Shown: in pieces, positions 26,295-64,000 of the stretch | How the letters are laid out: each line of letters opens with the position of its first letter | How positions within the stretch are numbered: position 1 is the stretch's first letter | Notes under the pieces: generated by a model | Database searches by the model: none | What the model saw: only the letters and a program-made list of their open reading frames with translations | What the model was told of the DNA's origin: nothing | Translations under genes and position numbers: made by a program | Source of the DNA: a virus | Lineage: Duplodnaviria; Heunggongvirae; Uroviricota; Caudoviricetes | Length of the DNA: 64,000 bases | Direction: 5' to 3' (one strand) | Virus record (IMG/VR): IMGVR_UViG_3300044798_000244 | Span: 1 to 64,000 of that record

Positions 26295-26567
26295 TTAAAT
26301 TTTTCGATTATATATCACTCGCTTAACTTTAGTAATAACACCTTTTGGTATCACAATAACGCCACCTACATCATCATTATCACCAATTGTGCTGGCCAGT
26401 CGAATGACCATAGCATCTTGATTTAGAAGCCAGCCAACTGATACACATTCGAGGGACTCTGTTTTCCCTGCTTCTTCTTGGGAAATCCAAGAATCTGAAG
26501 AAACAATGTCGTTCCAGTAGCAAACAAGAAGGTCTGCATATTTGAATCTCGCCCAGTTGATTTTCAT
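26295..26567 (-). CDS. hypothetical protein
   Basis: 90 aa. Its ATGA start overlaps the stop of the upstream endonuclease gene. Confidence 0.35.
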   Translation of the reverse strand: MKINWARFKYADLLVCYWNDIVSSDSWISQEEAGKTESLECVSVGWLLNQDAMVIRLASTIGDNDDVGGVIVIPKGVITKVKRVIYNRKI

Positions 26568-34007: not shown

Positions 34008-34798
34008 ATAGACCTGATTTTATCTTGAAAGAAAAGAGTCCAGCAACTTCTGTTTCCATTCACTCTGGAATTACAGGCAGCACACAATGTTATTAAGTTT
34101 TCTTGTTTACAGTTCTCTTTGATGTAATCTATGTGATGAACATCTAGCTCTCTGTAATTCTCCTCTCTTGTTCTACCACAAAGTTGACAGGTATTACCAT
34201 CCCGCTCTCTAATACAATTACGGAGCTTGTTGTTAAAAACACAAGGATATTCATCTTGGGATATTCCACCACACCAGTTGCAATTCTTTTCACCTCTTTG
34301 AGCATCACCTATACATTTCTTAGCATCTTCAGTATGATGACCACCGGAGAAAGTAACTCCTAGACCACGTTTACCAAAGTTAGCATTATTCACTCCTGTA
34401 TGCTTCTGCCTATTCTTCTCAATAGCCTCTTCTGTATGTTTATGGCCCTTCCAAGGATTTAGATCGCCCTTACCATTGTGACCATGAATAAATTCAGGAA
34501 TTCCAGCAGCTCTGTGCCACTCCTTAATAGAAATTCGTTCCCCGCATCCGCACTCACACAGAGGAGCCTCTTCTAGTCCACTTAGTATTCTATTCACTCT
34601 TGAATATAGTGAAAAATCACTTATCTTCTCATGGTTGAGAATGTACTGAGGAATTCCATTTTCTTTGTGAGAAGCTCGTACCTTTATCAAACCTTCACAT
34701 CCACAAGCACAAACTCTATCTGGATAGTACTCCAGATTCTTGTAGTCGTCCCAAACGAAATCATGTATGGAATTTTTAAGAATCATAAATGATGGCAA
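33989..34798 (-). CDS. HNH homing-endonuclease-like protein with zinc ribbons and a NUMOD-like repeat
   Basis: CACGCEG...CECGCGE...HGHNGKG. GHKHTEEAIEKNRQKHTG. C-terminal HNH motif LDVHHIDYIKENCKQENLITLCAACNSRVN. Overlaps the start of the gp21 fusion gene by 19 nt. Confidence 0.6.
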   Translation of the reverse strand: MPSFMILKNSIHDFVWDDYKNLEYYPDRVCACGCEGLIKVRASHKENGIPQYILNHEKISDFSLYSRVNRILSGLEEAPLCECGCGERISIKEWHRAAGIPEFIHGHNGKGDLNPWKGHKHTEEAIEKNRQKHTGVNNANFGKRGLGVTFSGGHHTEDAKKCIGDAQRGEKNCNWCGGISQDEYPCVFNNKLRNCIRERDGNTCQLCGRTREENYRELDVHHIDYIKENCKQENLITLCAACNSRVNGNRSCWTLFFQDKIRSICGVAV

Positions 34799-40628: not shown

Positions 40629-41327
40629 TTACTTCCTTTCCACATGTATCTGTAGTCCTGTACTTTTTCCGTAGGCTTTCCGGAGTTCTTGCTTCTTTCC
40701 AGTGGCCTCTTCTCGATTAGTGAACGGACCAGCAACAAATTTCCAACGGGCAATTGCTATCCACTCTCCTTTTCGGTGTGTCAAAGGAAGTAGAGAAACA
40801 TACCAACCAGAATCTCTTGATTCTACTTCCTCTTGTTTGTTATAGAAACTCATTGCATAATCTTCTGAGCTCTCATCAATCTGTTGAGTTTGTTTGAGAA
40901 GCCTTTGAAAATCAGAGCCATTAGAAACATTCCTTTCGCTCATAATCTTAAATACTGTAGTATTTAGCTTCTCAAGAATCACTGGAATCAGCTTCTTGAA
41001 CTCAGTGGCACCCTTCTCACATTCAATCAACGCATGCGTTAAAAGACTTGACAGCCCTTTTAGAGCTGTATAATCTCCCACTGCCTTCTCCGATTGAATC
41101 TTCTCCAAAGTTGTATACACGCTCTTACCTTTCAGCTTCTCTACAAGCTGAGACAGGAGCTGTTGGTCAGTAGGAAGGCTACTGAGGATAGCTGTAGCCC
41201 TCTTGGAATGTCCAGAGTTTGCTGCGGTCTGGGCAGACTCAATAATCTTCTGGTACTGAGTACCTTCGAAGTACACCCTGGCGGACTGGATACGTCCCAG
41301 TAGTTTTATAGCTTCATCTGTAATCAC
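40629..41327 (-). CDS. hypothetical protein
   Basis: 232 aa. ATGA overlap with the protease gene stop. Confidence 0.4.
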   Translation of the reverse strand: MITDEAIKLLGRIQSARVYFEGTQYQKIIESAQTAANSGHSKRATAILSSLPTDQQLLSQLVEKLKGKSVYTTLEKIQSEKAVGDYTALKGLSSLLTHALIECEKGATEFKKLIPVILEKLNTTVFKIMSERNVSNGSDFQRLLKQTQQIDESSEDYAMSFYNKQEEVESRDSGWYVSLLPLTHRKGEWIAIARWKFVAGPFTNREEATGKKQELRKAYGKSTGLQIHVERK

Positions 41328-42115
41328 TTGTTCAGCTCCTCAAGAAGCTTCGGAAGACATTTGCTAATCTGATCTACACCGATGGCAAAACCTAGACCAA
41401 TGTTAAAAGGTCCAGGGATGATTCCTTCTGCGATTCCGATTAGCTCACCTCTCGTATTCACAACAGGACCACCTGAGTTACCAGGATTTAGTGCTGCATC
41501 AGTTTGGACATTAACTCCAGTTTCTTTATCAGGTTCACGAATGTTACTAACGATTCCTTGTGAAACAGAAAACTCCAGATCTAAAGGATTTCCAATCACA
41601 TACACTGTATCCCCTACCTTAACATCCAGAACCTCAGAAACCGGAAGAGCTTTTAGAGGTGTATTGGGATCAACCTTGCACACAGCAATATCTAGATTTG
41701 GATCAACTACAAACTTAGTAATAATCAGCTCTGTGCCATCAACAAGTGTAACAGATCCAACACCTTTTTCACCTAAATCCTCTACTACGTGCTTACAGGT
41801 GAGAATCACTCCTGAAGGATCAATCACTACACCAGAAGCTGAGGATGACCTCATCTTTCCGGTAAGGACGTTGAATACGCCGGTTTGGATTTCAATCATA
41901 ACAGTTGCAGGCACCACCTTTTCAAGCATGTAAGATGCAGGAGTAACCTCATCAGCAATGGTCATAATCGCTATCTGATCAACATCGACTCGATAATCCG
42001 TCCAGTTAATCTTACGATCTACTCCGAGCATCTGCCAGTTCAGAACTGCTGTATTGATACAAACTACAAGCGCTAACGTTACGAGCAGTGTTCTGATGAG
42101 CTTCTTCATAATCAT
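41324..42115 (-). CDS. membrane-anchored or secreted trypsin-like serine protease (S1, DegP-like, no PDZ domain)
   Basis: N-terminal hydrophobic anchor (LIRTLLVTLALVVCI). Catalytic triad context: TCKHVV (His), NLDIAVCKV (Asp), GNSGGPVV (Ser). Confidence 0.65.
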   Translation of the reverse strand: MIMKKLIRTLLVTLALVVCINTAVLNWQMLGVDRKINWTDYRVDVDQIAIMTIADEVTPASYMLEKVVPATVMIEIQTGVFNVLTGKMRSSSASGVVIDPSGVILTCKHVVEDLGEKGVGSVTLVDGTELIITKFVVDPNLDIAVCKVDPNTPLKALPVSEVLDVKVGDTVYVIGNPLDLEFSVSQGIVSNIREPDKETGVNVQTDAALNPGNSGGPVVNTRGELIGIAEGIIPGPFNIGLGFAIGVDQISKCLPKLLEELNK

Positions 42116-48238: not shown

Positions 48239-48712
48239 TCAGCTCTTCACAGCAACAATATCTTGTGCATCAACAATACGACACTTCTGGTCATTGTATT
48301 CTACTGGCGTACCACCTTTGGAAACCAGAACAACATCCCCAACTTTGGCCGGCATAAGATTTCTTTTCCGATTGCCTAAGATACGACCAGGGCCCACTGC
48401 TACCACTATAGCTTGAACTGATGTTTGGGACTTGTTTGGAAGAAGAATGCCTCCAGCAGTCTTGGTCTTAAGAGGATCATCTCTCACTATCAGCTTGTCA
48501 CCAAGAGGTCTAATCTTCATTTCTTGATCTCCTCCTTCCCTCTCGTAAGCATCTCGGTCCCACTTCCAAGCACCCTCAACAATCTTCATGTGAGATCCAC
48601 AGTACTGACACTTGTGAACTGAGCCTTCTCTAGTTGCTGTGCAATTCTCTTGAACATCTTGGATACAGCATCTAAGAAGGCCTCCTATGTGGATTGGAAT
48701 CATTTTCTTCAT
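48239..48712 (-). CDS. groES: GroES-family co-chaperonin with an N-terminal zinc-ribbon extension
   Basis: The C-terminal 95 aa, MKIRPLGDKLIVRDDPLKTKTAGGILLPNKSQTSVQAIVVAVGPGRI...VGDVVLVSKGG...DIVAVK, aligns with GroES. N-terminal CCIQ..C..C...CQYCG. Confidence 0.65.
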   Translation of the reverse strand: MKKMIPIHIGGLLRCCIQDVQENCTATREGSVHKCQYCGSHMKIVEGAWKWDRDAYEREGGDQEMKIRPLGDKLIVRDDPLKTKTAGGILLPNKSQTSVQAIVVAVGPGRILGNRKRNLMPAKVGDVVLVSKGGTPVEYNDQKCRIVDAQDIVAVKS

Positions 48713-51589: not shown

Positions 51590-53599
51590 TCAAAAATCTT
51601 TTTCCTCCTCAATCGGCTCAGCCTTATCACCTCTTACCTCAGCCAAAATCTTCTGCAAGCCAGCTTCATCCTTCACAGTAGCCACCTTGGCCTCCCCAAC
51701 AAGGTTCTTCCAGGTCAGGGCATCTCTTTTAGTAAACCAGAGAACCTTCTTCATGTCTACTACGGTAGTCTTGTCGTGTGTAGACACAGCTTCAAAGATG
51801 TTAGCTTTCTTCGCTGCTTTCTCACCCTTCTTATCAATAATCGGTAGGTAGGAGGTCAGGTCTAAGTTCTCTATCGGGCGTCTGTAGAGCTTACGCCATG
51901 GGTAGATACTCTCTTGTACCTTACTTGCCACCACCGGTTCAGGACGAAGCCGCACAGGTCGTCTAGCAGCAGGAGCTTGGCCAGGGGTCGCCTCTTCGGG
52001 CTTCCGTTCACCACCCTTCGCTCCTTCAGCTTCCACTTGACCACCAGCAACCTGTGCAGCTTGAGCTCTCCGTAGCATCTCTTCTTCCTTTTCGATAACA
52101 TCGGGGCTCTTGTAGAAGTCCTCAATGTTAAAATCTTCGAGTTTCAAGATCTTGTCATTATAATACGCCCAGACCTTTACCAAATCAATCTTCCGACCAG
52201 CAACCATCTTTAGAGTCTTGAGGAGTTGTGTAAATGTTCGCATACCAGCTTCGAGACCTTTCCTAAGCTGCTCTTCCTCTGCTGCTGATGTCTCAGCCAT
52301 GTGAACTTGGAAGAGGTTCGGATCAGGATCCATTCCTTTATAGGCCAGATGAATCTGACAGAGTCTCGTAACCCCGGCAATTATTGCTCGCTGTATCCTT
52401 CTTGCTGATCTACTAAATCGAATGTCTAATTTACCAATAGATTCACTTCCTAAGGACCCTGTAGCCTCCGATACATATGCTCCTCCAAGTGCTGGAGGCG
52501 TAGCCAATGAGAACGCCAGCTGCTGCCTCAGGTTATCTACATCTACGATCCATCTGATATCTGCTTCCCCACCAATCTTCTCATACTTCAGATCATCACT
52601 CGATCCCCACACCGGAACGAAAATATCTTCAATCACTGTTAGAGGGTTCTGTTTGGAATCAAAGCTTGGGTTGTCTGATCCGGTATTGATACTTCGAGCG
52701 TGTGTAATCAGAGCTGCGTATTGATCCATTAAGGCAGACACAGCTTCAGAGTTGTTCATGTCCACCTTCATTTTCCAGATGTACCGGATGATGCCCCTCG
52801 TCACACGGGCTAACAAGAGGGAGTCTTCTGCCAGTCTCAATCGCTTATACGCTGGGAGGGCGTTAACTGGAATACCTGTGCCATATCTCGTGGTGAGCTG
52901 TTTGGTATCTGCTCCTGTAATAAGATGGATCTGTCGCATCTCTGTATAGCCAGGATCATTAAAACGAGGTCGTTTCTTCTTCGCTCCTAGTAATCGGAAG
53001 TGCACATATCGCCACGGTGGAATCAGGTCAGCTTTATCACTATCATTCGCTTGTCCTTGTGGGCTATGGTAGAATCCAACCAGAACGCCATTATAATCCA
53101 CTCTACTGATAGTCATCGGATGCATACTGTCATCTACATTTACTACACCCAGACCCGGAGCACCCACGACCTCCATGAACAGATCTCCATAGGCTGCTGT
53201 ACTATACGCCCAGTCGTGGATCTTCTCTTCTACTCCAATACGGTCGATGAGGTTTGATAGCTCTTGCTGATACGTAGCACTATCACTTGAGACCCAAACT
53301 GTAGAGTTTCTGATTGGATTATATGTTGATGCAACATTGGCGTACAATTCAAGGGCGCTGCCCACAAACCAATGCTCAAGAGATCTTTCTATTTCACTAT
53401 ACATGTTCCATCTATCGTAGCTGACCTGGATATCTGCTTCGATAGAATGTTGTACCATTGAAGCTGTTACGCCTGCTTTTCTTAACAAGGCGAGAGCTTC
53501 TTTACTCCACTTCTGATCACCCTTAAACGTATCCGCTGGGATCATTGGAGGTCGTGGACTAATGTCAGGAAGGAGTTGACGAAATGGGTTTGTTGCCAT
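51590..53599 (-). CDS. portal protein (gp20-like)
   Basis: 669 aa, the largest ORF near the terminase genes. It precedes the head-morphogenesis genes. Acidic, helix-rich C-terminus. The call rests on context and size. Confidence 0.5.
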   Translation of the reverse strand: MATNPFRQLLPDISPRPPMIPADTFKGDQKWSKEALALLRKAGVTASMVQHSIEADIQVSYDRWNMYSEIERSLEHWFVGSALELYANVASTYNPIRNSTVWVSSDSATYQQELSNLIDRIGVEEKIHDWAYSTAAYGDLFMEVVGAPGLGVVNVDDSMHPMTISRVDYNGVLVGFYHSPQGQANDSDKADLIPPWRYVHFRLLGAKKKRPRFNDPGYTEMRQIHLITGADTKQLTTRYGTGIPVNALPAYKRLRLAEDSLLLARVTRGIIRYIWKMKVDMNNSEAVSALMDQYAALITHARSINTGSDNPSFDSKQNPLTVIEDIFVPVWGSSDDLKYEKIGGEADIRWIVDVDNLRQQLAFSLATPPALGGAYVSEATGSLGSESIGKLDIRFSRSARRIQRAIIAGVTRLCQIHLAYKGMDPDPNLFQVHMAETSAAEEEQLRKGLEAGMRTFTQLLKTLKMVAGRKIDLVKVWAYYNDKILKLEDFNIEDFYKSPDVIEKEEEMLRRAQAAQVAGGQVEAEGAKGGERKPEEATPGQAPAARRPVRLRPEPVVASKVQESIYPWRKLYRRPIENLDLTSYLPIIDKKGEKAAKKANIFEAVSTHDKTTVVDMKKVLWFTKRDALTWKNLVGEAKVATVKDEAGLQKILAEVRGDKAEPIEEEKDF

Positions 53600-53887
53600 T
53601 GTGAGTGAGTTTCCCTTCTCTTCTATTTTATTTTATTTTATTTCTCTTGGGCTTACATACTTAGAGGACTCCTCAAGTCATATTTTAGTATAATCTTAGA
53701 GACCTCTGTATATAAATAAAGTACGTTGACTTGACTTCGGGAAGAGTTATGTAGATTTGGTTGGTTTTTATCTAATAAGATGGTGATCTGCTATTTCTTT
53801 TGAGAAAGCATCTTCTCTTTCAAGTGCCCAGTTGATTGCATCCCGAGTCGCCTCAATCGCACTTAGGCCAGGTGTGAGTTGTCTTCA

Positions 53888-54226
53888 TTATTCTACCTCA
53901 TCTAAACATTCGTCCACTAGAGAAATTTCTCCGGTAGCTCTGATTATCAAGATATGTTCTACATTTCTCTTGGTTCGAACCACCACTACCAGAAGCGGAG
54001 GGCTAAAAGATATTGTACGGATAGACCATCCAGCTACTGGAGGATGCGTTCCAGTGGAAAGACAATCAAGGAGATACTCCAGAGCTCGAACTGTTTCGCC
54101 CATCTCAGAGTGGGTAACAATGCTCCCTAGAAAAGAACTAAAGAGAGCACTATTCACCGTGAGAAGTGCTATATCATCATACAAGTCGAAGAGTTCTTCT
54201 TTGGAGAAAGGCATTGTTCTAATCAT
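53888..54226 (-). CDS. hypothetical protein
   Basis: 112 aa. Preferred over the overlapping Ser/Arg-rich plus ORF 53832..54245. Confidence 0.3.
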   Translation of the reverse strand: MIRTMPFSKEELFDLYDDIALLTVNSALFSSFLGSIVTHSEMGETVRALEYLLDCLSTGTHPPVAGWSIRTISFSPPLLVVVVRTKRNVEHILIIRATGEISLVDECLDEVE

Positions 54227-54587
54227 TCAGTTTGATGAGTTTTAGACTTGGCTTTCCAGGGGTGGGCTTCAAGGGCTCTTGCTCTTCAGGTTTGGGGCCA
54301 ATAGCGATCTCTTCGTTCTGCATCTTCCACAGAGCCATGTCCTTCGTACAATCGACCAGAATAGCTGGGCCAGCGAACTGAAGCTGAGCTCCAGGCTTAC
54401 CTAGAGGGTTACCATCAGGACCAGAAAGATCTGTTGGAATCGTAGCTGGAGCAACGAAGCAGATTAAGTCAACATTGATAGGGACGTCCTTGATCACCAT
54501 CACAGAAATTCCATTCTGCTTAGTCTGTTGAATATTGACAATGTCGAAGTTGACCCATCTCATCTTGCTTTCTCCTCTACTTAGCAT
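54219..54587 (-). CDS. hypothetical protein
   Basis: 122 aa. Confidence 0.35.
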   Translation of the reverse strand: MLSRGESKMRWVNFDIVNIQQTKQNGISVMVIKDVPINVDLICFVAPATIPTDLSGPDGNPLGKPGAQLQFAGPAILVDCTKDMALWKMQNEEIAIGPKPEEQEPLKPTPGKPSLKLIKLND

Positions 54588-54666
54588 TAGTATTTACGTT
54601 AGGTGTGGTGAAAGCTGAAGAGGTTACCATAAGCAACGTTGCAACTTCACCACACCTTACACATCA

Positions 54667-55476
54667 TTATACTGCTTCTGGCCTCAACCTTTCCATTGTG
54701 TTATGATATTCCCGAACACAATTTCCACAATACTTGCATCCACTCTTGCCCTTCTCACCTTCAATCTTGCCACATGAATAGACCAGTGGGTTGTCCTCAT
54801 ACCGGGCCATGCTCTTTCGCCAGGCATCAGTTGTAATGGCCCAGTACTCATTAAGCGTTCGCTTTCGAAAGATGTAGCCCATAACTACCTCATCAGGATA
54901 GCCTTTAAGTATTGCCTCTGGTGTTTTGTGATAAGCCATGAAGGTCAGGACCACTGGAACAGGCACATCTCTATGTGTATAGTATTCTACAGCTCTATCA
55001 CACAAATCGAGATTCCAGAGATTTGTACGGAATCGAACGAACATGAGATTAGGAGGAACATCCACTTTGTGAAAATCCACATCCGTCATCTTTCCAGGAT
55101 TGAGAGTCAGTACGACCGGGGCCTGGGCGTAGTCAACTGTTTCGTCGTGCCCCGACCATGTGCGACAGGTAACGATTGGGAAATCGAGATTAGGAATCGC
55201 TGTATTGTAGAACTTGTGCTGGTAGTTCTCGGTTGCATCAAGAACTAACTTCTTCTGCACATTCGAATCATGTCCATCATTAACTCTTATAATAGCAGTT
55301 GTATTTTTCGGAGGCATGTTGGGCAGATTGTCAAACAGAGGTTCAAGATAAGACCTCCCCGATTGGAAGAAGCAATCTTCACAGTTGTTAGGGCATACTC
55401 CGGTCTGCGGAATCGCACACAGGATACCACTGCCTTTGGTTTTAGGATTTTCGATGTACATATTACTACCTTTCAC
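54667..55476 (-). CDS. radical-SAM-like protein (CxxxCxxC) with an extra C-terminal Cys cluster
   Basis: GSGILCAIPQTGVCPNNCEDCFF has a Gly-rich stretch followed by CxxxCxxC, the layout seen in QueE/NrdG-type activases. C-terminal CGKIEGEKGKSGCKYCGNC. Confidence 0.4.
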   Translation of the reverse strand: MKGSNMYIENPKTKGSGILCAIPQTGVCPNNCEDCFFQSGRSYLEPLFDNLPNMPPKNTTAIIRVNDGHDSNVQKKLVLDATENYQHKFYNTAIPNLDFPIVTCRTWSGHDETVDYAQAPVVLTLNPGKMTDVDFHKVDVPPNLMFVRFRTNLWNLDLCDRAVEYYTHRDVPVPVVLTFMAYHKTPEAILKGYPDEVVMGYIFRKRTLNEYWAITTDAWRKSMARYEDNPLVYSCGKIEGEKGKSGCKYCGNCVREYHNTMERLRPEAV

Positions 55477-56192
55477 TCAAAGTTTGGGTTGATCCAATTA
55501 ACAATCCACTCTTCCTGATCTTTTATCGTTCGGTTTCTGTTATCAACAATCTGGTCAAATAGAACAGGATTTTTTAACCATGTAGCATGCATATCCTGGA
55601 TCTGAGTCTTCTGCTCTGTTGTAAGCATCTCAGGCCTTATAGCACGGAAGATATTATTCGTATTAAGATCCCACCGCAGCAAGGTAGCCCACATCGCTGT
55701 GTCTAAAGCTGTCTCACTTTCATGCTGATCTTCAAACTCGAAAGGTGCCCGCAACAACCGGACAACCTTACCACCATGCTCCTGAATATATCGAAGCTCA
55801 TTGGGAAACCGAACATCTGGTGTGAGGACTAAAGGAACAAGCGTCTGTTCTGGCTTCAGAGGATAAAGAACACTTTTTAGAGATTTTCCATAAGCATTGA
55901 TCCAGCAATCACCATAAGTATGCCGAAACCAATCAGTGCCTACTAACTGAAGCAGTTGACGCACGGTTTTACCACAAGGCAAGACAGTGTTCTTCTTCTC
56001 ATCAGAGTCCAGATTATCAACACGCCAATCCCACTCTGGTGGAACGAAGCAGTCAATAACGATTTCTTTGAGCTTGTCAGCGAACCGGAGCACCTTCCAA
56101 CATGGAAGCTGGGTTTTCAAGATATTAACGAATGTACTCTTCCCACCCTGCTTCTTCGCTGACACCCCTATGATGTTCATCTGTGAATCCAT
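55473..56192 (-). CDS. deoxynucleoside monophosphate kinase (T4 gp1 family)
   Basis: P-loop GVSAKKQGGKST, like T4 GVKRSGKDTT. VLTPDVRFPNE matches T4 VPDTRQDHE. 239 aa, against 241 aa in T4. Confidence 0.55.
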   Translation of the reverse strand: MDSQMNIIGVSAKKQGGKSTFVNILKTQLPCWKVLRFADKLKEIVIDCFVPPEWDWRVDNLDSDEKKNTVLPCGKTVRQLLQLVGTDWFRHTYGDCWINAYGKSLKSVLYPLKPEQTLVPLVLTPDVRFPNELRYIQEHGGKVVRLLRAPFEFEDQHESETALDTAMWATLLRWDLNTNNIFRAIRPEMLTTEQKTQIQDMHATWLKNPVLFDQIVDNRNRTIKDQEEWIVNWINPNFE

Positions 56193-56377
56193 CTCCTAAT
56201 CCTTATTCTGAAATTGAACAACTTGTAGCTGAGCTTCTTCAAATACTTCGTGTACCAGGACTTACTCTTCTCAGCCTCAACCTGTGCAGTGAACTTCTGA
56301 CGGTACATCTCAGCAAATAATTGTCTTAGATTACTAAAGGAGCTGTCAAGTTGATGTTTCTGTTTTCGGTTTTTCAT
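56177..56377 (-). CDS. hypothetical small basic protein
   Basis: 66 aa. Confidence 0.25.
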   Translation of the reverse strand: MKNRKQKHQLDSSFSNLRQLFAEMYRQKFTAQVEAEKSKSWYTKYLKKLSYKLFNFRIRIRRWIHR

Positions 56378-56573
56378 CTTTCACTCCACCTCTTGCAATA
56401 TCTCTTCCAGGCCAGTCCTTTCCGCAGAAAATCACTCCGCCTCCCTTGCCTATCAATCGTCTCAGCATCTTGAATCCGCAGTTAGGGCACTTCTTCAACA
56501 GTTCTGCTGTGATAGACTGAAAAGTTTCGAATTTGTGCTGACACGCATCACAACAATAATCATAATGTGGCAT
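56346..56573 (-). CDS. FmdB-family zinc-ribbon protein
   Basis: MPHYDYCCDACQHKFETFQS...CPNCG is the FmdB signature. Confidence 0.55.
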   Translation of the reverse strand: MPHYDYCCDACQHKFETFQSITAELLKKCPNCGFKMLRRLIGKGGGVIFCGKDWPGRDIARGGVKDEKPKTETST

Positions 56574-56578
56574 ATACT

Positions 56579-57190
56579 CTACTCAATGCAATCCCCAGGC
56601 TCTAAATTCAACATTCGAATCCGATGCTTAATTCGAAGAAGGCTGTCATGTATTCTACTGCTAATAGTATCACTGCACAACCCCCGCATGGCCGCAATCT
56701 CATTCAACGGAAGCTTCTGAATTTGATGAAGAATGATAAGCTCGAGCTCCTCCTGAGATATCACGTTATCATTGAGCATTCTTTTGAACACTCCATCGAG
56801 ACACTCAGAAGTATTCTCTTGACACAAACCTTCTTCTGGTGGCACCCAGATCTCTTCAAGTTCTGAAGCATTTATTACTCTCGGATGGGGAAAAGCTTGC
56901 AGGATCTCATTCTTGATATATGAAACAAGCCAAGCTGGAATTTTCTCAGGATCTTCTTTAGTAGGAATTCGGAAGGTAGCTTTGTAGATACCTACAGCAC
57001 CAGTGTGATACAAACTATCAAGGGCTTCGTTTCTAAGATGTTTATAATGATGTCGAAGCTGATGAACTACGTGCAAAATCAGCAAATGGGTTTTTGTCAA
57101 GATCTTTTTGAACATCTCATCATCTTGTGTTCTCTGATACTCAGATACAAGATCTCTCAATACCTCATTTGATATTCTCCGAGCGTCCAT
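56579..57190 (-). CDS. RNA polymerase sigma factor, sigma-70 family (regions 2 and 4)
   Basis: Region-2-like LDSLYHTGAVGIYKATFRI. Region-4 helix-turn-helix ISQEELELIILHQIQKLPLNEIAAMRGLCSDTISSRIHDSLLRIKHRI. Confidence 0.55.
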   Translation of the reverse strand: MDARRISNEVLRDLVSEYQRTQDDEMFKKILTKTHLLILHVVHQLRHHYKHLRNEALDSLYHTGAVGIYKATFRIPTKEDPEKIPAWLVSYIKNEILQAFPHPRVINASELEEIWVPPEEGLCQENTSECLDGVFKRMLNDNVISQEELELIILHQIQKLPLNEIAAMRGLCSDTISSRIHDSLLRIKHRIRMLNLEPGDCIE

Positions 57191-57240
57191 TTCTAAATCC
57201 TTTGGTGATATGAAGTTATAAACCTTTGTAGTATCATATC

Positions 57241-57270
57241 ATTATACTCACACCTACTAGCCCTGGTGAA
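57241..57270 (-). promoter_or_regulatory. possible sigma-70-type promoter for the sigma factor gene
   Basis: Minus-strand sense TTCACC, 18 nt, TATAAT, about 50 nt upstream of ATG at 57190. AAAGGA ribosome-binding site. Confidence 0.25.
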
Positions 57271-59296
57271 TGCCCCGCATACGTTTGAGCATGGCTTCGT
57301 ACCTTTTTAGATGCTCTGATTGAAGTTGCAAAGAAGATTCCACAGGTTTTTTCAACAGATCAATCCCTGCTACAGATGAGAGCATCCTGGAAATCTCATC
57401 CTCATCTTTTGGCAAGGACTTCCTCATCAATTCTGTTAGCACCTCTATATCAGGGGGAACCATACATCGCTCTATAGCCAAACTAACTGATCCAGCTACT
57501 GCATCCGCAACATCCTTTGATCCCCTCATCACTATCTCTCTAGTATTTCCATCTTCGAGAAACTCCAGCTCAGCCACCTCATCAGGGTGATCTATTTTAT
57601 TCTTGTCTGGATCATCTTCAAGGTTCTTAAGCTCAAAGTGTAAGTACGGATTGAGAGGAGTTGACCAAAGACCCTCAAACACTCTGTTTCTGAAGTCTCT
57701 ATACCGGTTAGGACTCTTGTCCATTGATAGGTCGCTACAGACCAGCCCAGCCCTCTCAAGAATCTGTTTATCGCTCTCTGTAGCAATAGACAAATCGTAG
57801 GACACTTCGTTGATGTTGAATCCATGAACTACCTTTAGATCCAGAATCAACTTGCGTACCTTGTGAAGAGGTATCCTGTCACCTGGATGACCCCGTATCC
57901 TCATTGCAAAGTCCGTGTAAGCCACAGCTACTTTGTCTACTCGGAATGAACCATCGCTTTCCTCAGCAGTCCTCCTAGCCCAACCAGAGATGCATGACAT
58001 AGCCAGTCCAAGAGAATCACCATCACCTGAGAAGGCGAAGTCCACATGTAGGAACCTTGGAACGTTCCGAGGGATCTTAATAACAGAGAGATCCAGAAAA
58101 TCGAGCAGGTTCACCTCATCATTGAGTCCAGTCTCAATTGTCATCAACTTGACAGGATTTGGATCACTTGTATAACACTTTACCAAGGCACTCTCAGATG
58201 GAAACAACTTCGTCCTTCGAATACTCGAAGTGGAAATACCTGCAATGTCTCTTAGCGCCCCTATAATATCTTTTACAAAAGGCTCAGAGTACTCAACAGG
58301 AACCTCAATAATCTGAAATCCATCCAGAAGCGCTTTCTTCAGATCCTCTTCAGTATCCAGAACCCTTGGAGGATTATGAACATCTCCAATACTGACCTTG
58401 AATTTCTTTCCACAGTAGTGACTGGAGGGTTTAGCATCCCAAATCGGAATATCAACAATCACGACACTCTTAGAATTTTTGTATTTTGCAATGAAAGCGT
58501 TAAGAAATGCCAAACGATCTTGCTTCGAAGCTACCAAAAAGAATCGACCAATAGTCTCCCCATGAATTACAAACCGAGTCTCCAGTCGACGTCGGGCATT
58601 TTCATAGGCCTGAAGAACTTTTTGCCGCTGTATATTGGTTGCTGCGGGGGAATCAACTTCATCCATCAAAGCTATAATAACATCTTCGCCTTGCGATCCG
58701 AAGCCTTGAACAAACGGGGAAGCAAAAGTGTACTTAATAAGAGAAAATTCAACTCGAGGGTGAAGTTCAGAACCCACAACATTCCCATGGGCTCTAAACC
58801 AGGGAGAAGCTAAGAGATGACTTTGAAACAAGGCATACGATCGACTCTCACTTTCGCTCTTGGTGAGGTTGAAAAACACAATGGACATTTGTCCACCAGA
58901 TGTTAGCCCGAAGTGAGCCCAAGGATCTTTCAGGCAAAGTATCCGGCACAAAGTATACAGAGCCCCATAAACCGCCGCTCTGGTTTTTCCTGTTCCTATG
59001 GCACCTGTATACACGTACAGGAATTTACTATCTTCTTTAGCTACTACATCTAGAGAATCTTTCCAAACTGGATAAACTACTTTTCCTTCACCAGTAAGAT
59101 TACCAAGATATTGCGGACTACGAAGAAATTCCTCCATAGTAGGGGGCTTCTCTTTGTAATTCAAAGAGATAGTATAGTCAAGATAGTTCTTGATCATGCC
59201 TTGACTATTTGGAGCTGTCTTCGCCATTGGGTGTGCTTTTTTCTGAACTTTCGAACGTTGCTTCAGTTGCTCCCTCTGCAAGCTTCCGAAGATCAT
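57257..59296 (-). CDS. gp17: terminase large subunit (gp17-like). The true start is probably the internal Met near 59230 or 59200.
   Basis: Walker A VYTGAIGTGKT. Walker B-like IIALMDEVD. C-terminal acidic nuclease-type region. 679 aa. Confidence 0.7.
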   Translation of the reverse strand: MIFGSLQREQLKQRSKVQKKAHPMAKTAPNSQGMIKNYLDYTISLNYKEKPPTMEEFLRSPQYLGNLTGEGKVVYPVWKDSLDVVAKEDSKFLYVYTGAIGTGKTRAAVYGALYTLCRILCLKDPWAHFGLTSGGQMSIVFFNLTKSESESRSYALFQSHLLASPWFRAHGNVVGSELHPRVEFSLIKYTFASPFVQGFGSQGEDVIIALMDEVDSPAATNIQRQKVLQAYENARRRLETRFVIHGETIGRFFLVASKQDRLAFLNAFIAKYKNSKSVVIVDIPIWDAKPSSHYCGKKFKVSIGDVHNPPRVLDTEEDLKKALLDGFQIIEVPVEYSEPFVKDIIGALRDIAGISTSSIRRTKLFPSESALVKCYTSDPNPVKLMTIETGLNDEVNLLDFLDLSVIKIPRNVPRFLHVDFAFSGDGDSLGLAMSCISGWARRTAEESDGSFRVDKVAVAYTDFAMRIRGHPGDRIPLHKVRKLILDLKVVHGFNINEVSYDLSIATESDKQILERAGLVCSDLSMDKSPNRYRDFRNRVFEGLWSTPLNPYLHFELKNLEDDPDKNKIDHPDEVAELEFLEDGNTREIVMRGSKDVADAVAGSVSLAIERCMVPPDIEVLTELMRKSLPKDEDEISRMLSSVAGIDLLKKPVESSLQLQSEHLKRYEAMLKRMRGIHQG

Positions 59297-59945
59297 GTAT
59301 CAAGTGTTCTCTTTCGACAGGTGACATGTCATCCACCTTCTGAGCTATTCGTGCATCAATCTGAACCGGACCAGTAGTAACTTGGTTATTTTGCTGCTGT
59401 CCAACAATAAGAAAATTCTTCTGATTAACAACTGGGGCAGATTCTTGTGGAGCTGTGAAACCCATCTGCTTAGCAAAATTGATCAGGTGATCAGACTCTG
59501 CTCGCATTTCCTGAATGAGCTTGATTTTCAACTTCTGCAGCGCTTCATTACGAACAACACGAACACCACAGTTGATACTGCACTTCGCACAAACATAGTA
59601 AATGTTCCCACCCAGCCCATGTTCCACCACTGGAGCTTCGCAACAGACAGACTCCATAGCCTCATCCTTACCATCCCACAACTGGAACATCGCTTCAAGC
59701 TTAGCACATCGTTCTTGTGAGCCTTGAACAATCTGTCGTGATAAATTAGCAGCTACTTGAACAGCTACATCTTTGTCCATAGTCCGTTTGAATCTCTGCT
59801 TGATCCGGACAACTTCTTCCACAGAGATATCGCAGTTGAAGATCTCTGATGCCTTCTCAGCGACCTTCTTCATATCCTGAGGATATCGCAAGATCAAAAA
59901 TCTGACCTGCTCTTCCCAATTTAATTTCTGGATATTATGACTCAT
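59205..59945 (-). CDS. terminase small subunit candidate
   Basis: 246 aa, immediately upstream of the large terminase gene. Cys cluster CCEAP...CAKCSINCG. Confidence 0.4.
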   Translation of the reverse strand: MSHNIQKLNWEEQVRFLILRYPQDMKKVAEKASEIFNCDISVEEVVRIKQRFKRTMDKDVAVQVAANLSRQIVQGSQERCAKLEAMFQLWDGKDEAMESVCCEAPVVEHGLGGNIYYVCAKCSINCGVRVVRNEALQKLKIKLIQEMRAESDHLINFAKQMGFTAPQESAPVVNQKNFLIVGQQQNNQVTTGPVQIDARIAQKVDDMSPVEREHLIHDLRKLAEGATEATFESSEKSTPNGEDSSK

Positions 59946-59954
59946 TACAAAAAC

Positions 59955-60341
59955 TCAGAACTCCACTACTCCACTAATATCTGCCACACCACAGAGTACG
60001 ATAGAATACTCTTTTCCATCTGGGGCGGTTTCGATATGCCGCCAGGGGACTGTCTGATCATATTTGACGTAAATGCCAGGCACTAGGTCTTTCGGAACGC
60101 TACGCCACCTTCCCTTATCAGTGAAGAACCCCGGCCCCACTGCCAAGAGAATCCCAATACCTTGTCCATACTCCTGACGAAGCTTCTCCGGTATCTCAAT
60201 CACACCACCAGGAATATACTTCTCCGGAGGAGGGCATGGAAAGATAAACACTCGATCAGCCGTTGGCCGCCAAGGAAACCTCACCTTGCCCCGAACATGG
60301 AACGGTGTTAGTTGCTTCATTGAAAACCTCAATCTTTGCAT
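59955..60341 (-). CDS. groES: GroES-family co-chaperonin. The track ORF extends to 60416, overlapping the QueD gene, so an internal Met start is assumed.
   Basis: DRVFIFPCPPPEKYIPGGVIEIP...GILLAVGPGFFTDKG...VPGIYVKYDQ...DGKEYSIVLCGVADISGVVE aligns along the length of GroES (DRVIVKR..SAGGIVL..VLAVGNG..VGDIVIF..EEVLIM.E.DILA). Confidence 0.55.
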   Translation of the reverse strand: MQRLRFSMKQLTPFHVRGKVRFPWRPTADRVFIFPCPPPEKYIPGGVIEIPEKLRQEYGQGIGILLAVGPGFFTDKGRWRSVPKDLVPGIYVKYDQTVPWRHIETAPDGKEYSIVLCGVADISGVVEF

Positions 60342-60673
60342 TCGTAGGTAGCAATGTTTCCTTCGGACTCCTGAACATCCACACGATAGCAGGTTGGTAT
60401 CTTGAGACAGATCCATTCAGCGATGTTTTCCGCTGTAGGATTGACATCCAGAACATCATTCAGATACTTATGATCAAGGGCATCTACTACAACCTCTTTG
60501 ATTACTGTAAAGTCGACCACCATTCCATTGTTAGCCTTGACCTCTTCATCTGTGGCTTGGCAGTACGTAGTGACTATCCAAGAGTGGCCGTGAAGATTTT
60601 GGCACTTACTTCTGTAAGGCAGATCTAACTTATGTGCCCCCGCTATTTCTATTCGTTTCTGAATTCGGAACAT
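60329..60673 (-). CDS. queD: 6-carboxy-5,6,7,8-tetrahydropterin synthase QueD (PTPS family)
   Basis: AHKL...CQNLHGHSW (CxxxHGH zinc site). DHKYLNDV and ESEGNIATYE align with E. coli QueD. Confidence 0.7.
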   Translation of the reverse strand: MFRIQKRIEIAGAHKLDLPYRSKCQNLHGHSWIVTTYCQATDEEVKANNGMVVDFTVIKEVVVDALDHKYLNDVLDVNPTAENIAEWICLKIPTCYRVDVQESEGNIATYECKD

Positions 60674-60685
60674 CTTTCTCTCCTA

Positions 60686-61258
60686 TTACTTTTCATCTGG
60701 TACTTCATAGATTTCACTAAGATGCCTATACATTTCTCCACAGCCCATTCCACATCCGGCCAAGAACTTATCACCTGTGTATCTGAAGCCTGCGATGGTG
60801 GGGCCAAGTTCAGCAACCCCTGTCGTATTGATTTTGTGAACCAGGGCTGCTGTCCTCAAGTGGGCTGGCTTCATCAGACTGATAATCTCGAAGGCCTTCA
60901 TCATCGTCGCTCCAGTGTCCCAAATATCATCGATGATCCAGACATTTGAGTCCTGAACATCTTCAATAGATAAGTCAAGAGTTGAGGTAACTTTCATCTG
61001 ATCGGGTTGGCGACCATTTCCATAGCTGGAGATTCCCATGTGACCAATTCGAACATCTTTAACGTAGTTATCAAGATGATGAAGAATTTGGTATGCAGTC
61101 CAAAGACCCCCTTTGAGAATAGCAATAAGAACCAGAGTGCCAGGTATCTTTCCTACAATTCTACCAAGCACTTCTCCTGCGATGTTGAGACGGAGATTTC
61201 GAATCGCTTCCTCTACATCTATTTGAGAGTAAAGAAGACTCCAATCTTGTGTTTTCAT
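60686..61258 (-). CDS. purine phosphoribosyltransferase (type I phosphoribosyltransferase, HPRT/XGPRT-like)
   Basis: PRPP-binding motif VWIIDDIWDTGATM. Upstream LIAILKGG loop. 190 aa. Confidence 0.6.
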   Translation of the reverse strand: MKTQDWSLLYSQIDVEEAIRNLRLNIAGEVLGRIVGKIPGTLVLIAILKGGLWTAYQILHHLDNYVKDVRIGHMGISSYGNGRQPDQMKVTSTLDLSIEDVQDSNVWIIDDIWDTGATMMKAFEIISLMKPAHLRTAALVHKINTTGVAELGPTIAGFRYTGDKFLAGCGMGCGEMYRHLSEIYEVPDEK

Positions 61259-61869
61259 CTAATCTTCTCCACTGTGCTTGTTCCATTGGTAATAATCACA
61301 CGGTATGACACATCTGCAATAGAAGCGAGCTCTTGCTCATGCGTTACCAGAATGAATTGCACACCAAGACGTTCCGAGAGGCTCTTGATCATCACACCAA
61401 TCGCCTCAAGGCGTCCTGAATCCACATTTTTCAGGGGCTCATCAAAGATAAGAACTGGTTCAGTCCTGTTAACTTGTAGTGCCCAGAAGGTAACCCTGAG
61501 AACAAATGAGCAGACATCAACTACCCCACCCCCAAGTTCATCTTTCAGTGAATGTTGATAGTCGTCGATGACGACCCACATCTGGGCCTCGGCCTGGCTT
61601 CGGCTCACTGTACTCTCAATCTCGAATGAGTAATTATCACCAAAGACGTAGTGAAGAGCTTCAGTGACCAGAGCTTCAACCACACCTTTGAACTCTGTCT
61701 GGGCCAGAACACCTACAGTGGTAATCACATTCTGGGCAGATACTAGGTTAGCGAGCTTCTCTTTAAGGTTCAGGAGCTCGTTCTGACTCGCTGCCAGTTG
61801 TGATTCCAGGAGCTGTTTCTTGGTTCTGGTCTCCACCAGAAACGTTCTGTACTTGCTCAATGTTGTCAT
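61255..61869 (-). CDS. Rad50/SbcC-like ABC ATPase, C-terminal half only
   Basis: Coiled-coil lead-in. Signature-like KDELGGG. Walker B / D-loop PVLIFDEPLKNVD. H-loop QFILVTHEQEL. There is no Walker A anywhere in this ORF. Confidence 0.55.
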   Translation of the reverse strand: MTTLSKYRTFLVETRTKKQLLESQLAASQNELLNLKEKLANLVSAQNVITTVGVLAQTEFKGVVEALVTEALHYVFGDNYSFEIESTVSRSQAEAQMWVVIDDYQHSLKDELGGGVVDVCSFVLRVTFWALQVNRTEPVLIFDEPLKNVDSGRLEAIGVMIKSLSERLGVQFILVTHEQELASIADVSYRVIITNGTSTVEKIR

Positions 61870-62146
61870 CTACTGGTACCGGAACATATAATTCGATTTT
61901 GGTTCCTATCTGGAGCTTCGCGACAGGAAACGTCAGTGGTTGGGCAGGCGACATATTTACATGGTCGTGACCTTTTCCATCGAAGGTCTTCCACATCTTG
62001 AAGCCGGTGATGTCATCACTCCCCAGGACAGCATAGCCAGCAAGCACCAGCCTAGTGTGCAATGGCTGTTCTTTCCCCGTGCTCACCCCGGGCTTGGCAT
62101 GATGAACCTTTCGGCGGTGATGGTTACGGTTTTTGGGCTGAGCCAT
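61763..62146 (-). CDS. hypothetical His/Arg-rich protein, or a frame fragment of a disrupted Rad50 gene
   Basis: 127-aa ORF overlapping the start of 61255..61869 in another frame. It would leave a 255-nt non-coding gap if not coding. Confidence 0.25.
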   Translation of the reverse strand: MAQPKNRNHHRRKVHHAKPGVSTGKEQPLHTRLVLAGYAVLGSDDITGFKMWKTFDGKGHDHVNMSPAQPLTFPVAKLQIGTKIELYVPVPVDDNIEQVQNVSGGDQNQETAPGITTGSESERAPEP

Positions 62147-62411
62147 TCAAACCTCCTGTGCTTGGCGCTATAGCTATTTGTATAATCTGCTCCAACTCTG
62201 TATTGAGGGCTTGAAGACCTTGTTCGGTCTGGGCGATCTCCTCGCCTATTGTATTGAGCCTCTCTACTGCGGCCTCGACAGTATCTAATTCGAATCCTTG
62301 TTTCAGTTGAGTCCTCAGCTGGTCCTCTTGACCCTGACGTCTCTGCTCGCGATTCCGGAGGTCTTGTATTTGCTGTTCCTTACGACGAAGATCAGCTACT
62401 ATATCACTCAC
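62124..62411 (-). CDS. coiled-coil protein, possibly a Rad50 coiled-coil fragment
   Basis: 95 aa of continuous heptad coiled coil (LRRKEQQIQDLRNREQRRQGQEDQLRTQLKQ...). ATGA-type overlap with the Mre11 gene. Confidence 0.3.
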   Translation of the reverse strand: MSDIVADLRRKEQQIQDLRNREQRRQGQEDQLRTQLKQGFELDTVEAAVERLNTIGEEIAQTEQGLQALNTELEQIIQIAIAPSTGGLNGSAQKP

Positions 62412-63325
62412 TTTATAGCCTCCTCAAGAGCACTATCAAGTTCATCTTTCACACCTTGACCAACATTCATCTTGTCCATAACACGAAGCAAAATACTCTT
62501 CCAACCTTCTGATGCTCCTCTCGAGTTGAGCATCTTTTCTATGAATCTCTCGAGCACATTTGTATTCTTCACTTCAGGTGATGACAAATCGAACACGGCC
62601 TCGGCCGGCTCGATCTGCAACTCATATGTCTTCACTTGAAGATCCGGGATGCTGACAACACACACTGAAGGTTTCAGATCAAACTTCAGGTCGGTCATTG
62701 TCTGTCTAACAATGGCTCCAACATTGATAATCACTCGACCATTCCATCGATCAACAAATGGGTAGTGATAATCTCCAACTAACACCAAATTATAGTCCTG
62801 ATGAACTCGAAGAAATGCTCGGGGCTCTTCAAGTACTTGTCCCGGGAATAGCGGACGATTTCCAATCATCCGATGGGTGACTAAAATGTTAAAGTCGTCC
62901 CGGCTCTGCACCTTAGGAATCATCTCACCAAACGAAGCTCCATAGGCACGAACTCCTGGCATGATTACTATGGAATAGTGATCTAAGATCTGCACCACAC
63001 CAGCAGACTCAAGAACCCGGATAGGACTATTTGGCAGTGTATTAACTGAGTGTCCTGCTACATCATGTTGACCCCAACAAGATAAAATAGGACTTTTCTT
63101 CGTTCGTAAGTACTCAATCAGTGTAGCCTTCACCCGATTAGCTACCGTCGGAGAATCAAAGAAATCTCCAGCCTGGAGGACAGCTTGACATCCTTCAGAG
63201 TCAAAGATTCCATACGCCTGATCCAGCTTGTTCATCTGGGTAGCGAAGTAGTTGTCTCTTCGTCTTTTTGGTGCTACATTGGTGAAGTGAGTATCACCTA
63301 GGAGACCAATCTTGATTGATTCCAT
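62408..63325 (-). CDS. Mre11/SbcD-type nuclease (gp47-like metallophosphoesterase)
   Basis: Motifs in canonical order: GDTHF (I), GDFFD (II), GQHD (III), ILVTHR (IV), GDYHY (V). Confidence 0.65.
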   Translation of the reverse strand: MESIKIGLLGDTHFTNVAPKRRRDNYFATQMNKLDQAYGIFDSEGCQAVLQAGDFFDSPTVANRVKATLIEYLRTKKSPILSCWGQHDVAGHSVNTLPNSPIRVLESAGVVQILDHYSIVIMPGVRAYGASFGEMIPKVQSRDDFNILVTHRMIGNRPLFPGQVLEEPRAFLRVHQDYNLVLVGDYHYPFVDRWNGRVIINVGAIVRQTMTDLKFDLKPSVCVVSIPDLQVKTYELQIEPAEAVFDLSSPEVKNTNVLERFIEKMLNSRGASEGWKSILLRVMDKMNVGQGVKDELDSALEEAIK

Positions 63326-63654
63326 GCTGCGAGATCCTTGTTAAGTGCATGTATGAACAGCATGTATGATTCGTCTATCATCATCTGATACAGCTTTTCA
63401 TCGTTCCTGTCCTTCGCCAGCCAGAGATTAGTACGATCGGAAACGAACTTCTGAAACAACTCCACAGTACCAGGTCGAACACATTCAAGGTGAACAACCT
63501 CTTCGCCATGCATAAGAACAGCGATATCTGCTCCTGAGATACCAAGCCGACTGCATTCCCGGCAACACATGTCTGCTTCCCGGGCCTGCTGTGGATCCCA
63601 ATGTCGGGGTGGTGTGATCTTCTGAGTCTTGACAGGATTTGCTTCGCTTCTCAT
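63298..63654 (-). CDS. hypothetical protein
   Basis: 118 aa. ATGA overlap with the upstream ORF. Confidence 0.35.
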   Translation of the reverse strand: MRSEANPVKTQKITPPRHWDPQQAREADMCCRECSRLGISGADIAVLMHGEEVVHLECVRPGTVELFQKFVSDRTNLWLAKDRNDEKLYQMMIDESYMLFIHALNKDLAAWNQSRLVS

Positions 63655-64000
63655 TTGCTGTGCTCCAGTAGATGCTTCTGTGTTACTTTTGTTAGAGGAC
63701 TACTGCACCAAGGACACGTAGTAAGCTGAAATAGAAGTTTTTGCTTTTCCTGCTCCATCTTACTCACTGAATCATCTGCCCCTTGACCTTCATTCACGCA
63801 CTTTCTAAGTGCTTCTACAATCGTATACAGCTTCTGAAGGTTGGTGCACAGTGTATTATACTGTTGGACCAGCTGTTCTCTTCTACTTAGCACCTCGTCA
63901 AGATTGGCTGGGAACACAACCTTATTCGCACAAGCAGACCTCAATCCTTCAATGAGAGCTTGGAGAGCATGGTACAAGCTTCTTTGTTGCAAGAAAGCTT
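63651..64000 (-). CDS. hypothetical protein, 5'-partial, with a C-terminal CPWC
   Basis: The frame stays open to the window edge. The listed start is a TTG, so the N-terminus lies beyond 64000. Confidence 0.35.
   Translation of the reverse strand, partial: AFLQQRSLYHALQALIEGLRSACANKVVFPANLDEVLSRREQLVQQYNTLCTNLQKLYTIVEALRKCVNEGQGADDSVSKMEQEKQKLLFQLTTCPWCSSPLTKVTQKHLLEHSK

Follow-up and report, generated by a model that had tools for sequence, protein, structure and literature searches.

A displaced QueD and a divergent phosphoribosyltransferase in an uncultured myovirus lineage with a predicted DpdA-type 7-deazaguanine DNA modification system

Introduction

Every phage known to bear 7-deazaguanines has been found to encode a transglycosylase of the DpdA subfamilies, which points to a post-replicative insertion of these bases into the DNA (PMC10516641). 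In the preQ1 class of these systems, represented by Halovirus HVTV-1, the Cellulophaga phage phiSM and the Vibrio phage VH7D (Hutinet 2019, 2023), the transglycosylase is accompanied by FolE, QueD, QueE, QueC and also QueF. Neither of the two main surveys of phage 7-deazaguanine systems (one of them PMC10516641) mentions a phosphoribosyltransferase (PRT). Such an enzyme is known from the tubercidin cluster of Streptomyces: TubE is an HGPRT-like PRT specific for 7-carboxy-7-deazaguanine (CDG) and phosphoribosyl pyrophosphate (PRPP), its cluster also holds GTP cyclohydrolase I (GCH-I), 6-carboxy-5,6,7,8-tetrahydropterin (CPH4) synthase and a radical-SAM enzyme, and ToyH has been proposed as the preQ0 equivalent of TubE (PMC6112128). 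Here, we analyze a stretch of 64,000 nucleotides from a tailed phage (positions 1 to 64,000 of the IMG/VR record IMGVR_UViG_3300044798_000244; hereinafter the window), in which a gene for QueD lies beside one for a divergent PRT. A preliminary description of the window had grouped these two genes with those for a radical-SAM-like protein and a T4-type deoxynucleoside monophosphate (dNMP) kinase as a module by which a modified purine would enter DNA through the nucleotide pool. We find that the QueD of the window is a displaced piece of a DpdA-type 7-deazaguanine DNA modification system, and consider it likely that the lineage has an ordinary preQ1-class pathway, post-replicative and dependent on DpdA, to which this QueD contributes; a tentative role of the PRT would be to recycle guanine for it.

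Results

QueD and the other Que genes of the lineage

The QueD (CPH4 synthase) gene at 60329..60673 on the minus strand codes for a protein of 114 amino acids (aa), which is recognized by the Pfam PTPS profile (4.5e-24; 85 bits against a 22-bit cut-off) and by TIGR03367 (5.5e-23; 81.2 bits, slightly under the 89.25-bit equivalog cut-off). Its closest structures in the PDB are the CPH4 synthases 2oba and 4ntm, and its motif C24-QNL-H28-G-H30 (Cx3HGH), along with H14 and D67-H68, aligns with the corresponding residues of the E. coli and P. aeruginosa QueD proteins, so that the catalytic Cys, the three Zn-binding His and the Asp-His pair are all present. The identification of this gene in the preliminary description is thereby confirmed. 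We also considered an identity as DpdL, which is ruled out by the motif, as DpdL features LxxxHRH (PMC10516641). Orthologues with 69-76% identity are found at the same position in three related contigs (L010, L013 and L036). Within the window, Pfam scans of all minus-strand open reading frames (ORFs) of at least 150 aa and tblastn searches with lineage-specific queries detected no FolE, QueC, QueE, QueF or tRNA-guanine transglycosylase (TGT)/DpdA; hence, the absence of FolE, QueC and DpdA reported earlier for this stretch holds.

The remaining genes of the pathway were found in a relative, IMGVR_UViG_3300031952_000030, which is collinear with window positions 56230-63886 at ~71% nucleotide and 60-82% amino acid identity. 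The two share the gene order SbcC-N, SbcD, two small ORFs, SbcC-C, PRT, QueD, Cpn10-like, a 250-aa ORF, terminase, sigma-like and Zn-ribbon. Further upstream, the relative codes in order for FolE, QueE, QueF, a primase, QueC, a 369-aa protein, a sliding clamp and a DNA polymerase of family A, which are followed by a clamp loader, a RecA-like protein, SbcCD, the PRT and QueD. The assignments of the pathway genes are supported by profile matches: FolE, lying ~23 kb upstream of the PRT, with Pfam (2e-61), QueE with Radical_SAM (1e-9) and the QueE-like phrog_2076 (2e-31), QueF with PF14489 (1e-30), and QueC with PF06508 (4.5e-50). The 369-aa protein matches phrog_887, the queuine tRNA-ribosyltransferases (7.6e-43), and is DpdA-like. 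QueC and DpdA lie ~15-17 kb and the whole Que/DpdA set 15-24 kb upstream of the PRT, with QueD situated ~15 kb away from the other Que genes. The part of the relative's contig that we read (~32 kb; IMG/VR coordinates 14829-47369) contained no second QueD, which suggests that the QueD seen in the window is needed for this pathway. A 316-aa ORF adjoining QueF in the relative, considered as a candidate for DpdA, proved to be the primase. As a separate observation, the family-A DNA polymerase of the relative (L015:6330-9065) displays an N-terminal domain of the uracil-DNA-glycosylase superfamily (PF03167, 1.2e-20).

For the phage of the window itself, searches for its exact proteins gave only Logan fragments of 4-5 kb, one of which extends 295 bp beyond the window. 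The sequencing run SRR35360736 yields contigs that are 100% identical to window positions 52000-56846 and 60100-64000. The same run contains a 3-kb contig coding for P0292, an orthologue of the relative's DpdA-like protein with 83% identity, directly after QueC (L033) and a small HNH ORF. P0292 is also on record for a JGI contig measuring 80,329 bp, and the contig for which exact proteins of the window (P0001 and P0271) are listed has this same length. The identical JGI contig of QueC and DpdA also carries a NUMOD3-DUF559 homing endonuclease (L032:761-1447) beside QueC, which is 71-75% identical at the nucleotide level to copies within the window. A metagenome scan with the phage's own DpdA recovered only relatives with 78% identity.

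Four lines of evidence establish P0292 as a DpdA-like transglycosylase. First, tblastn searches match it to annotated queuine/queuosine tRNA-ribosyltransferases of many phages. Second, it resembles gp34 of Pantoea phage Vid5, an annotated queuosine tRNA ribosyltransferase (33% identity over 221 aa, E 1e-30), whose gene lies in a QueE/Gat-QueC/QueD/FolE cluster followed by those for the clamp and polymerase. Third, it carries the conserved DSG and S-x-D-S-x-x-W segments. Fourth, the top Foldseek matches of its AlphaFold2 model (pLDDT 89) are TGT structures. A scan with Pfam gave no TGT match for this protein.

These results overturn the central proposal of the preliminary description. With QueC and DpdA recovered for the same phage and the full set present in a syntenic relative, entry of a modified purine into DNA via the nucleotide pool is no longer supported; indeed, that description had itself named a DpdA-based cluster in the flanking sequence as the finding that would speak against it. 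Its fallback, namely that the missing enzymes lie beyond 64000, is supported by the same genes, as is its placement of QueD in a phage pathway for 7-deazaguanine DNA modification. Further, the product of a PRT is a ribonucleoside monophosphate, while the T4-type gp1 kinases act on deoxynucleoside monophosphates; thus, the chain from base to nucleoside monophosphate (NMP) to dNTP is not closed by the genes that had been cited for it. Neither a ribonucleotide reductase (RNR) nor an NMP kinase was seen in the window.

The phosphoribosyltransferase beside QueD

The PRT gene (60686..61258, minus strand; 190 aa) lies upstream of QueD at a distance of 12 bp, and there is an overlap between its start and the stop of the gene for the C-terminal half of SbcC. 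The protein matches Pfam Pribosyltran (1.4e-13), its closest structures in the PDB are those of bacterial Hpt (1e-13), and it is detected by the TIGR01203 HGPRTase model (5e-25) with 88.1 bits, well under the 150-bit equivalog cut-off. Judged by these profile scores, it is an HGPRT-family but divergent enzyme, and the purine PRT named in the preliminary description is upheld at the family level. Its homologues are few, with only 19 found among the 5.8 billion proteins searched. The clade comprises 17 members, all metagenomic, which are embedded in the same gene block wherever flanking sequence existed. A search of IMG/VR with the window sequence returned no relatives of the PRT, none were found among GenBank phages, and the motifs of the clade are absent from 185,579 GTDB genomes. 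The closest homologue, P0272 (69% identity), is encoded on two contigs, one of 125 kb from ENA and one of 47 kb from JGI/IMG-VR, both showing the collinearity with window 56230-63886 described above, and two more sub-lineages, with PRTs of 58% and 51% identity, share the gene order.

We aligned the 17-member clade with canonical Hpt proteins, among them those of E. coli and human. The window PRT and its clade retain the PRPP loop (DDIWDTGAT), the SSYG catalytic loop, the KGG motif, the stacking Phe and the C-terminal Arg, and the Asp before TG (the xDTG motif) is retained in 15 of the 17 members. The Asp of the GYGIDY motif, invariant in canonical Hpt, is replaced by Gly in every member of the clade (GCGMGC/I; G172 in the PRT), a loss that is also visible in computed alignments with the B. 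anthracis Hpt and 3ohp. Other fixed changes convert GY to GC, EDIID to DDIWD and DF to GH, and Lys165 is replaced by Arg in most members. The GYGIDY Asp corresponds to human D193, an Mg2+ ligand in the 6-oxopurine PRTs, and in HGPRT structures the xDTG Asp contacts N7 of the purine and Lys165 its O6. The altered base and metal pocket argues that this is not a plain housekeeping Hpt; with the N7-contacting Asp and the O6-contacting Lys/Arg still in place, a true 6-oxopurine is favored as its substrate. Based on these sequence features, the most likely, if still tentative, role of the PRT would be the recapture of the guanine expelled by DpdA. As a variant of this role, we considered a salvage enzyme that is insensitive to deazaguanine bases.

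Proposed pathway and alternative explanations

In the pathway that we propose, FolE would convert GTP to dihydroneopterin triphosphate, from which QueD (window 60329-60673) would generate CPH4, QueE CDG, QueC preQ0 and QueF preQ1. The genes for FolE, QueE, QueF, QueC and DpdA are predicted to lie in the replication module ~15-24 kb upstream, beyond coordinate 64000. The DpdA-type transglycosylase would then exchange guanine in the phage DNA for the deazaguanine base, freeing one guanine per modified site, which the PRT could combine with PRPP to form GMP. This GMP would refill the GTP pool feeding FolE, and its formation would remove a base that competes with the deazaguanine for re-insertion.

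Several points weigh against this pathway or parts of it. The linkage of QueC and DpdA to the window, if strong, is indirect. Further, FolE, QueE and QueF are shown only in relatives, with QueD and QueC being shown for the phage of the window, and the 7-deazaguanine modification is itself a prediction from genes. With respect to the PRT, a clade that has lost an otherwise invariant Mg-binding Asp and fixed additional changes in its pocket is unexpected for simple guanine salvage. The PRT and QueD are adjacent in all four related contigs examined, yet the whole surrounding gene order is equally kept; thus, their adjacency alone is weak evidence for a functional coupling. Finally, the stretches of up to ~20 kb that were fetched from phages with compact FolE-QueDEC-QueF-DpdA clusters contained no such PRT.

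An alternative that we consider unlikely, and which amounts to a weaker version of the nucleotide-pool proposal, is that the PRT is a TubE/ToyH-like enzyme phosphoribosylating a 7-deazaguanine base, be it CDG, preQ0 or preQ1. The phage would then, with comparably low likelihood, make deazaguanine nucleotides in addition to the exchange by DpdA. These might enter a parallel, replication-coupled route to hypermodified DNA via an NMP kinase, RNR and polymerase, or might act as an antimetabolite, signal or regulator. TubE provides the biochemical precedent for such an activity, the PRT is confined to a lineage predicted to make 7-deazaguanines and is always beside QueD, and its pocket is changed at positions that are invariant in canonical HGPRTs, with the changes fixed in the clade, as would suit a changed substrate. 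Moreover, an enzyme that handles nucleotides is encoded ~5 kb away: in the window this is the dNMP kinase, in L010 a MazG-like dGTP diphosphohydrolase. However, the presence of DpdA makes a nucleotide route unnecessary, and the N7-contacting Asp kept in most of the clade is better suited to a genuine purine than to a 7-deaza base. The ribonucleotide product would also encounter the gap noted above, as the window showed neither an RNR nor an NMP kinase and the T4-type kinase acts on deoxy-NMPs.

Rather improbable, in our estimate, is a reading in which neither QueD nor the PRT has to do with DNA modification and both are auxiliary metabolic genes, with QueD boosting host queuosine (tRNA) or pterin metabolism and the PRT serving generic purine salvage for the nucleotide supply during infection; the divergence of the latter would then reflect drift or a resistance of the enzyme to deazaguanine bases as inhibitors. 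Phages do carry single Que genes and salvage enzymes as auxiliary genes, the PRT retains all the PRPP-binding and catalytic-loop elements, and the pair lies among recombination and packaging genes in the window rather than beside other Que genes. Against this stands the full FolE/QueE/QueC/QueF set and DpdA encoded by the lineage, and the clade-wide fixation of the substitutions in the pocket of the PRT points to selection, not drift. We continue to favor the DpdA-dependent pathway and, tentatively, guanine recapture by the PRT.

The dNMP kinase and the CxxxCxxC protein

The two other genes of the supposed module lie outside the 7-deazaguanine system. The product of the gene at 55473..56192 (minus strand; 239 aa) matches Pfam DNMK (PF21448) with 28.7 bits against a 27.1-bit cut-off and phrog_139 at 3.2e-30 over residues 3-165, with a P-loop at its N-terminus, and the assignment as a T4 gp1-type dNMP kinase stands. 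An orthologue with 61% identity is present in L013, and a MazG-like dGTP diphosphohydrolase fills the same slot in L010; thus, the kinase is not a conserved partner of the Que genes, and we found no link between it and them. We judge it to be an enzyme of ordinary T4-style nucleotide salvage. The preliminary description had foreseen that, in a DpdA-based system, the PRT and the kinase would both be ordinary salvage enzymes: this was borne out for the kinase and not for the PRT with its altered pocket. The MazG-like enzyme (PF18909) occurs in two unrelated phage lineages (L010:15633-16094 and L008:3155-3601), and in both its gene adjoins, or is two ORFs downstream of, a homologue of the CxxxCxxC protein discussed next.

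The gene at 54667..55476 (minus strand; 269 aa) codes for a putative Fe-S protein with the sequence CPNNCEDC (C28-x3-C32-x2-C35); its true start is probably the ATG at 55461 (264 aa), as in its relatives and in the JGI gene call. The preliminary description had seen in it a radical-SAM-like candidate for QueE. The CxxxCxxC motif is indeed present, and the identity as QueE does not hold. Single-sequence and profile searches of Pfam, PHROGs, NCBIfam and the PDB, which cover the QueE and NrdG search suggested there as well as the radical-SAM families, gave no match. An hhalign comparison with a phage QueE profile aligned just the 11 columns of the Cys motif with a probability of 2.2%, a Foldseek search of BFVD returned no significant match, and the protein lacks the GGE motif of the radical-SAM enzymes. 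The bona fide QueE proteins encoded elsewhere in the lineage carry the motifs IQGEG, CNLRCxxCDT and TGGEP.

We found that the family of this protein comprises more than 1200 sequence clusters, which typically share ~60% identity and are all unannotated. At 50% identity, it is reduced to 229 representatives; in an HMM search of the whole library, these formed a closed group that nothing connected to any known family, the radical-SAM families included. Among 90 diverse members, C28-x3-C32-x2-C35-F is at least 96% conserved, as is a second site, C235-x11-C247-x2-C250-x2-C253, and several polar motifs are conserved as well. The copy in the window features an 18-aa insertion at about residues 100-117, and the longer members of the family show no informative partner domain except for one intein. 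Homologues with 57-66% identity in unrelated phages adjoin genes for N6/N4 DNA methyltransferases, SLOG proteins, an RNA ligase or a clamp loader, or lie just upstream of those for the terminase and portal; within 10 kb of them, Que genes were not detected. L010 carries a homologue with only 31% identity in the same slot, suggestive of an in-situ replacement. An identity as DpdM was also considered and rejected, as DpdM is DUF3109 and the Pfam scan gave no match. We read the protein as an orphan Fe-S enzyme of phages, plausibly a radical-SAM-like one that has an auxiliary cluster, whose targets would probably be DNA or nucleotides. It is outside the 7-deazaguanine pathway and happens to sit nearby. 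That it might be a non-orthologous replacement of QueE, or a 7-deazapurine tailoring enzyme comparable in role to DpdM, is a notion to which we give very little credence: the CxxxCxxC motif followed by an aromatic residue, the second four-Cys site and the 31% identical homologue in the slot of L010 could be cited in its favor, but the lineage has a canonical QueE, the hhalign probability is negligible, the protein is not a member of DUF3109 and its homologues in unrelated phages are unaccompanied by Que genes within 10 kb.

Gene neighborhood of the window

The window is a phage segment of ~43% GC with all its genes on the minus strand. It codes for a T4-type structural set recognized by Pfam (gp23-like capsid, gp20 portal, sheath, gp19-like tube and baseplate J/gp6/V proteins) and contains one large terminase-sized ORF. 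No near relative was found among the GenBank phages, and its source is an uncultured myovirus with T4-like structural genes. All four genes on which the preliminary description was based are found on the minus strand at the positions that it gave. They do not form one contiguous module: between the QueD-PRT pair and the pair of the kinase and the 269-aa protein lie a gene of the Cpn10 type, an ORF of 246 aa, the terminase, genes for a sigma-like and a Zn-ribbon protein, and a small ORF. Neither a preQ1 riboswitch nor a tRNA was detected in the window, and a scan of 53500-64000 for promoters and terminators gave nothing informative.

Some neighbors of these genes have features of their own. The SbcC/Rad50-like ATPase is split between two genes, one for its N-terminal and one for its C-terminal half, with SbcD and two small ORFs between them (61255-61869, 62408-63325 and 63651-64000, minus strand), an arrangement kept in every relative examined (L010, L013 and L036). 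There are two Cpn10/GroES-like genes on the minus strand, one at 48239-48712 with a clear Pfam match (1.4e-18) and one at 59955-60320 with a weak match; the latter is directly downstream of QueD and keeps this position in the relatives. The gp23-like major capsid gene (28440-31324, minus strand) is split into an N-terminal part at 30443-31324 and a C-terminal part at 28440-28988, between which lie a group I intron (Rfam RF00028, 29067-29289, 51.8 bits) and an ORF for a TnsA-like endonuclease (29420-30337). Four free-standing homing-endonuclease-like ORFs are found on the minus strand (2115-2792, 12515-13279, 26564-27373 and 33989-34798), three combining NUMOD3 with a DUF559/Vsr-like domain and one HNH with NUMOD3; they are paralogous, with 71-75% nucleotide identity. 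The structural region further codes for an SPFH/Band-7 protein (25717-26256), a trypsin-like serine protease (41324-42115) and an 883-aa ORF (31356-34007), all on the minus strand, the last with a T4-type prohead protease domain at its N-terminus.

Discussion

Our analysis indicates that an uncultured phage lineage with T4-like structural genes carries a scattered, predicted 7-deazaguanine system of the preQ1 class, and removes the tempting inference of a nucleotide-pool route from the apparent absence of DpdA. Should the PRT indeed recycle the guanine expelled by DpdA, it would provide a first case in which product salvage is coupled to DNA base exchange; a PRT acting on deazaguanines would instead be the first TubE-like enzyme from a phage. 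The family of the 269-aa protein, which is very widespread, unusually conserved for a phage protein and unannotated in every library searched, merits work at the bench alongside the PRT.

The enzymes set apart above can be compared with those to which they were likened. In common with the radical SAM superfamily, including QueE, spore photoproduct lyase and the twitch/SPASM-type enzymes, the 269-aa protein has CxxxCxxC followed by an aromatic residue, and its C-terminal Cys-rich site is reminiscent of an auxiliary cluster. Its model suggests a partial TIM-barrel, which may or may not be specifically of the radical-SAM type; it differs in lacking a match to any family profile and the GGE motif, and in belonging to a closed family. 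The dNMP kinase shares PF21448, phrog_139 and the P-loop with T4 gp1, with a Pfam score barely over the cut-off.

The PRT belongs to the same type I PRT family as the bacterial Hpt enzymes (PDB 3o7m, 1g9s) and displays the same PRPP, SSYG, KGG, Phe and Arg elements. It differs from them in its TIGR01203 score (88 versus 150 bits), in the replacement of the GYGIDY Asp by Gly, in the fixed changes of its pocket and in its confinement to a single phage lineage. TubE and ToyH, from the tubercidin and toyocamycin clusters of Streptomyces, are likewise HGPRT-family PRTs encoded with genes for a deazapurine base, including a QueD homologue (PMC6112128). However, these are secondary-metabolite clusters without a transglycosylase, whereas the window lineage has DpdA, and the likeness is one of genomic co-occurrence only.

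With respect to the phage DpdA systems, the lineage has the same enzyme set as HVTV-1, phiSM and VH7D, i.e., FolE, QueD, QueE, QueC, QueF and a TGT-fold DpdA, and the placement of DpdA beside the sliding clamp and DNA polymerase recurs in Pantoea phage Vid5. In contrast to the preQ1-class phages, its genes are scattered through the replication module, with QueD ~15 kb apart and beside a PRT, and its DpdA is only 31-35% identical to the annotated phage DpdAs, with which it aligns from about residue 130 on. Thus, the system is itself of a known kind; what is new is the phage lineage that bears it and the altered, lineage-specific PRT beside its QueD.

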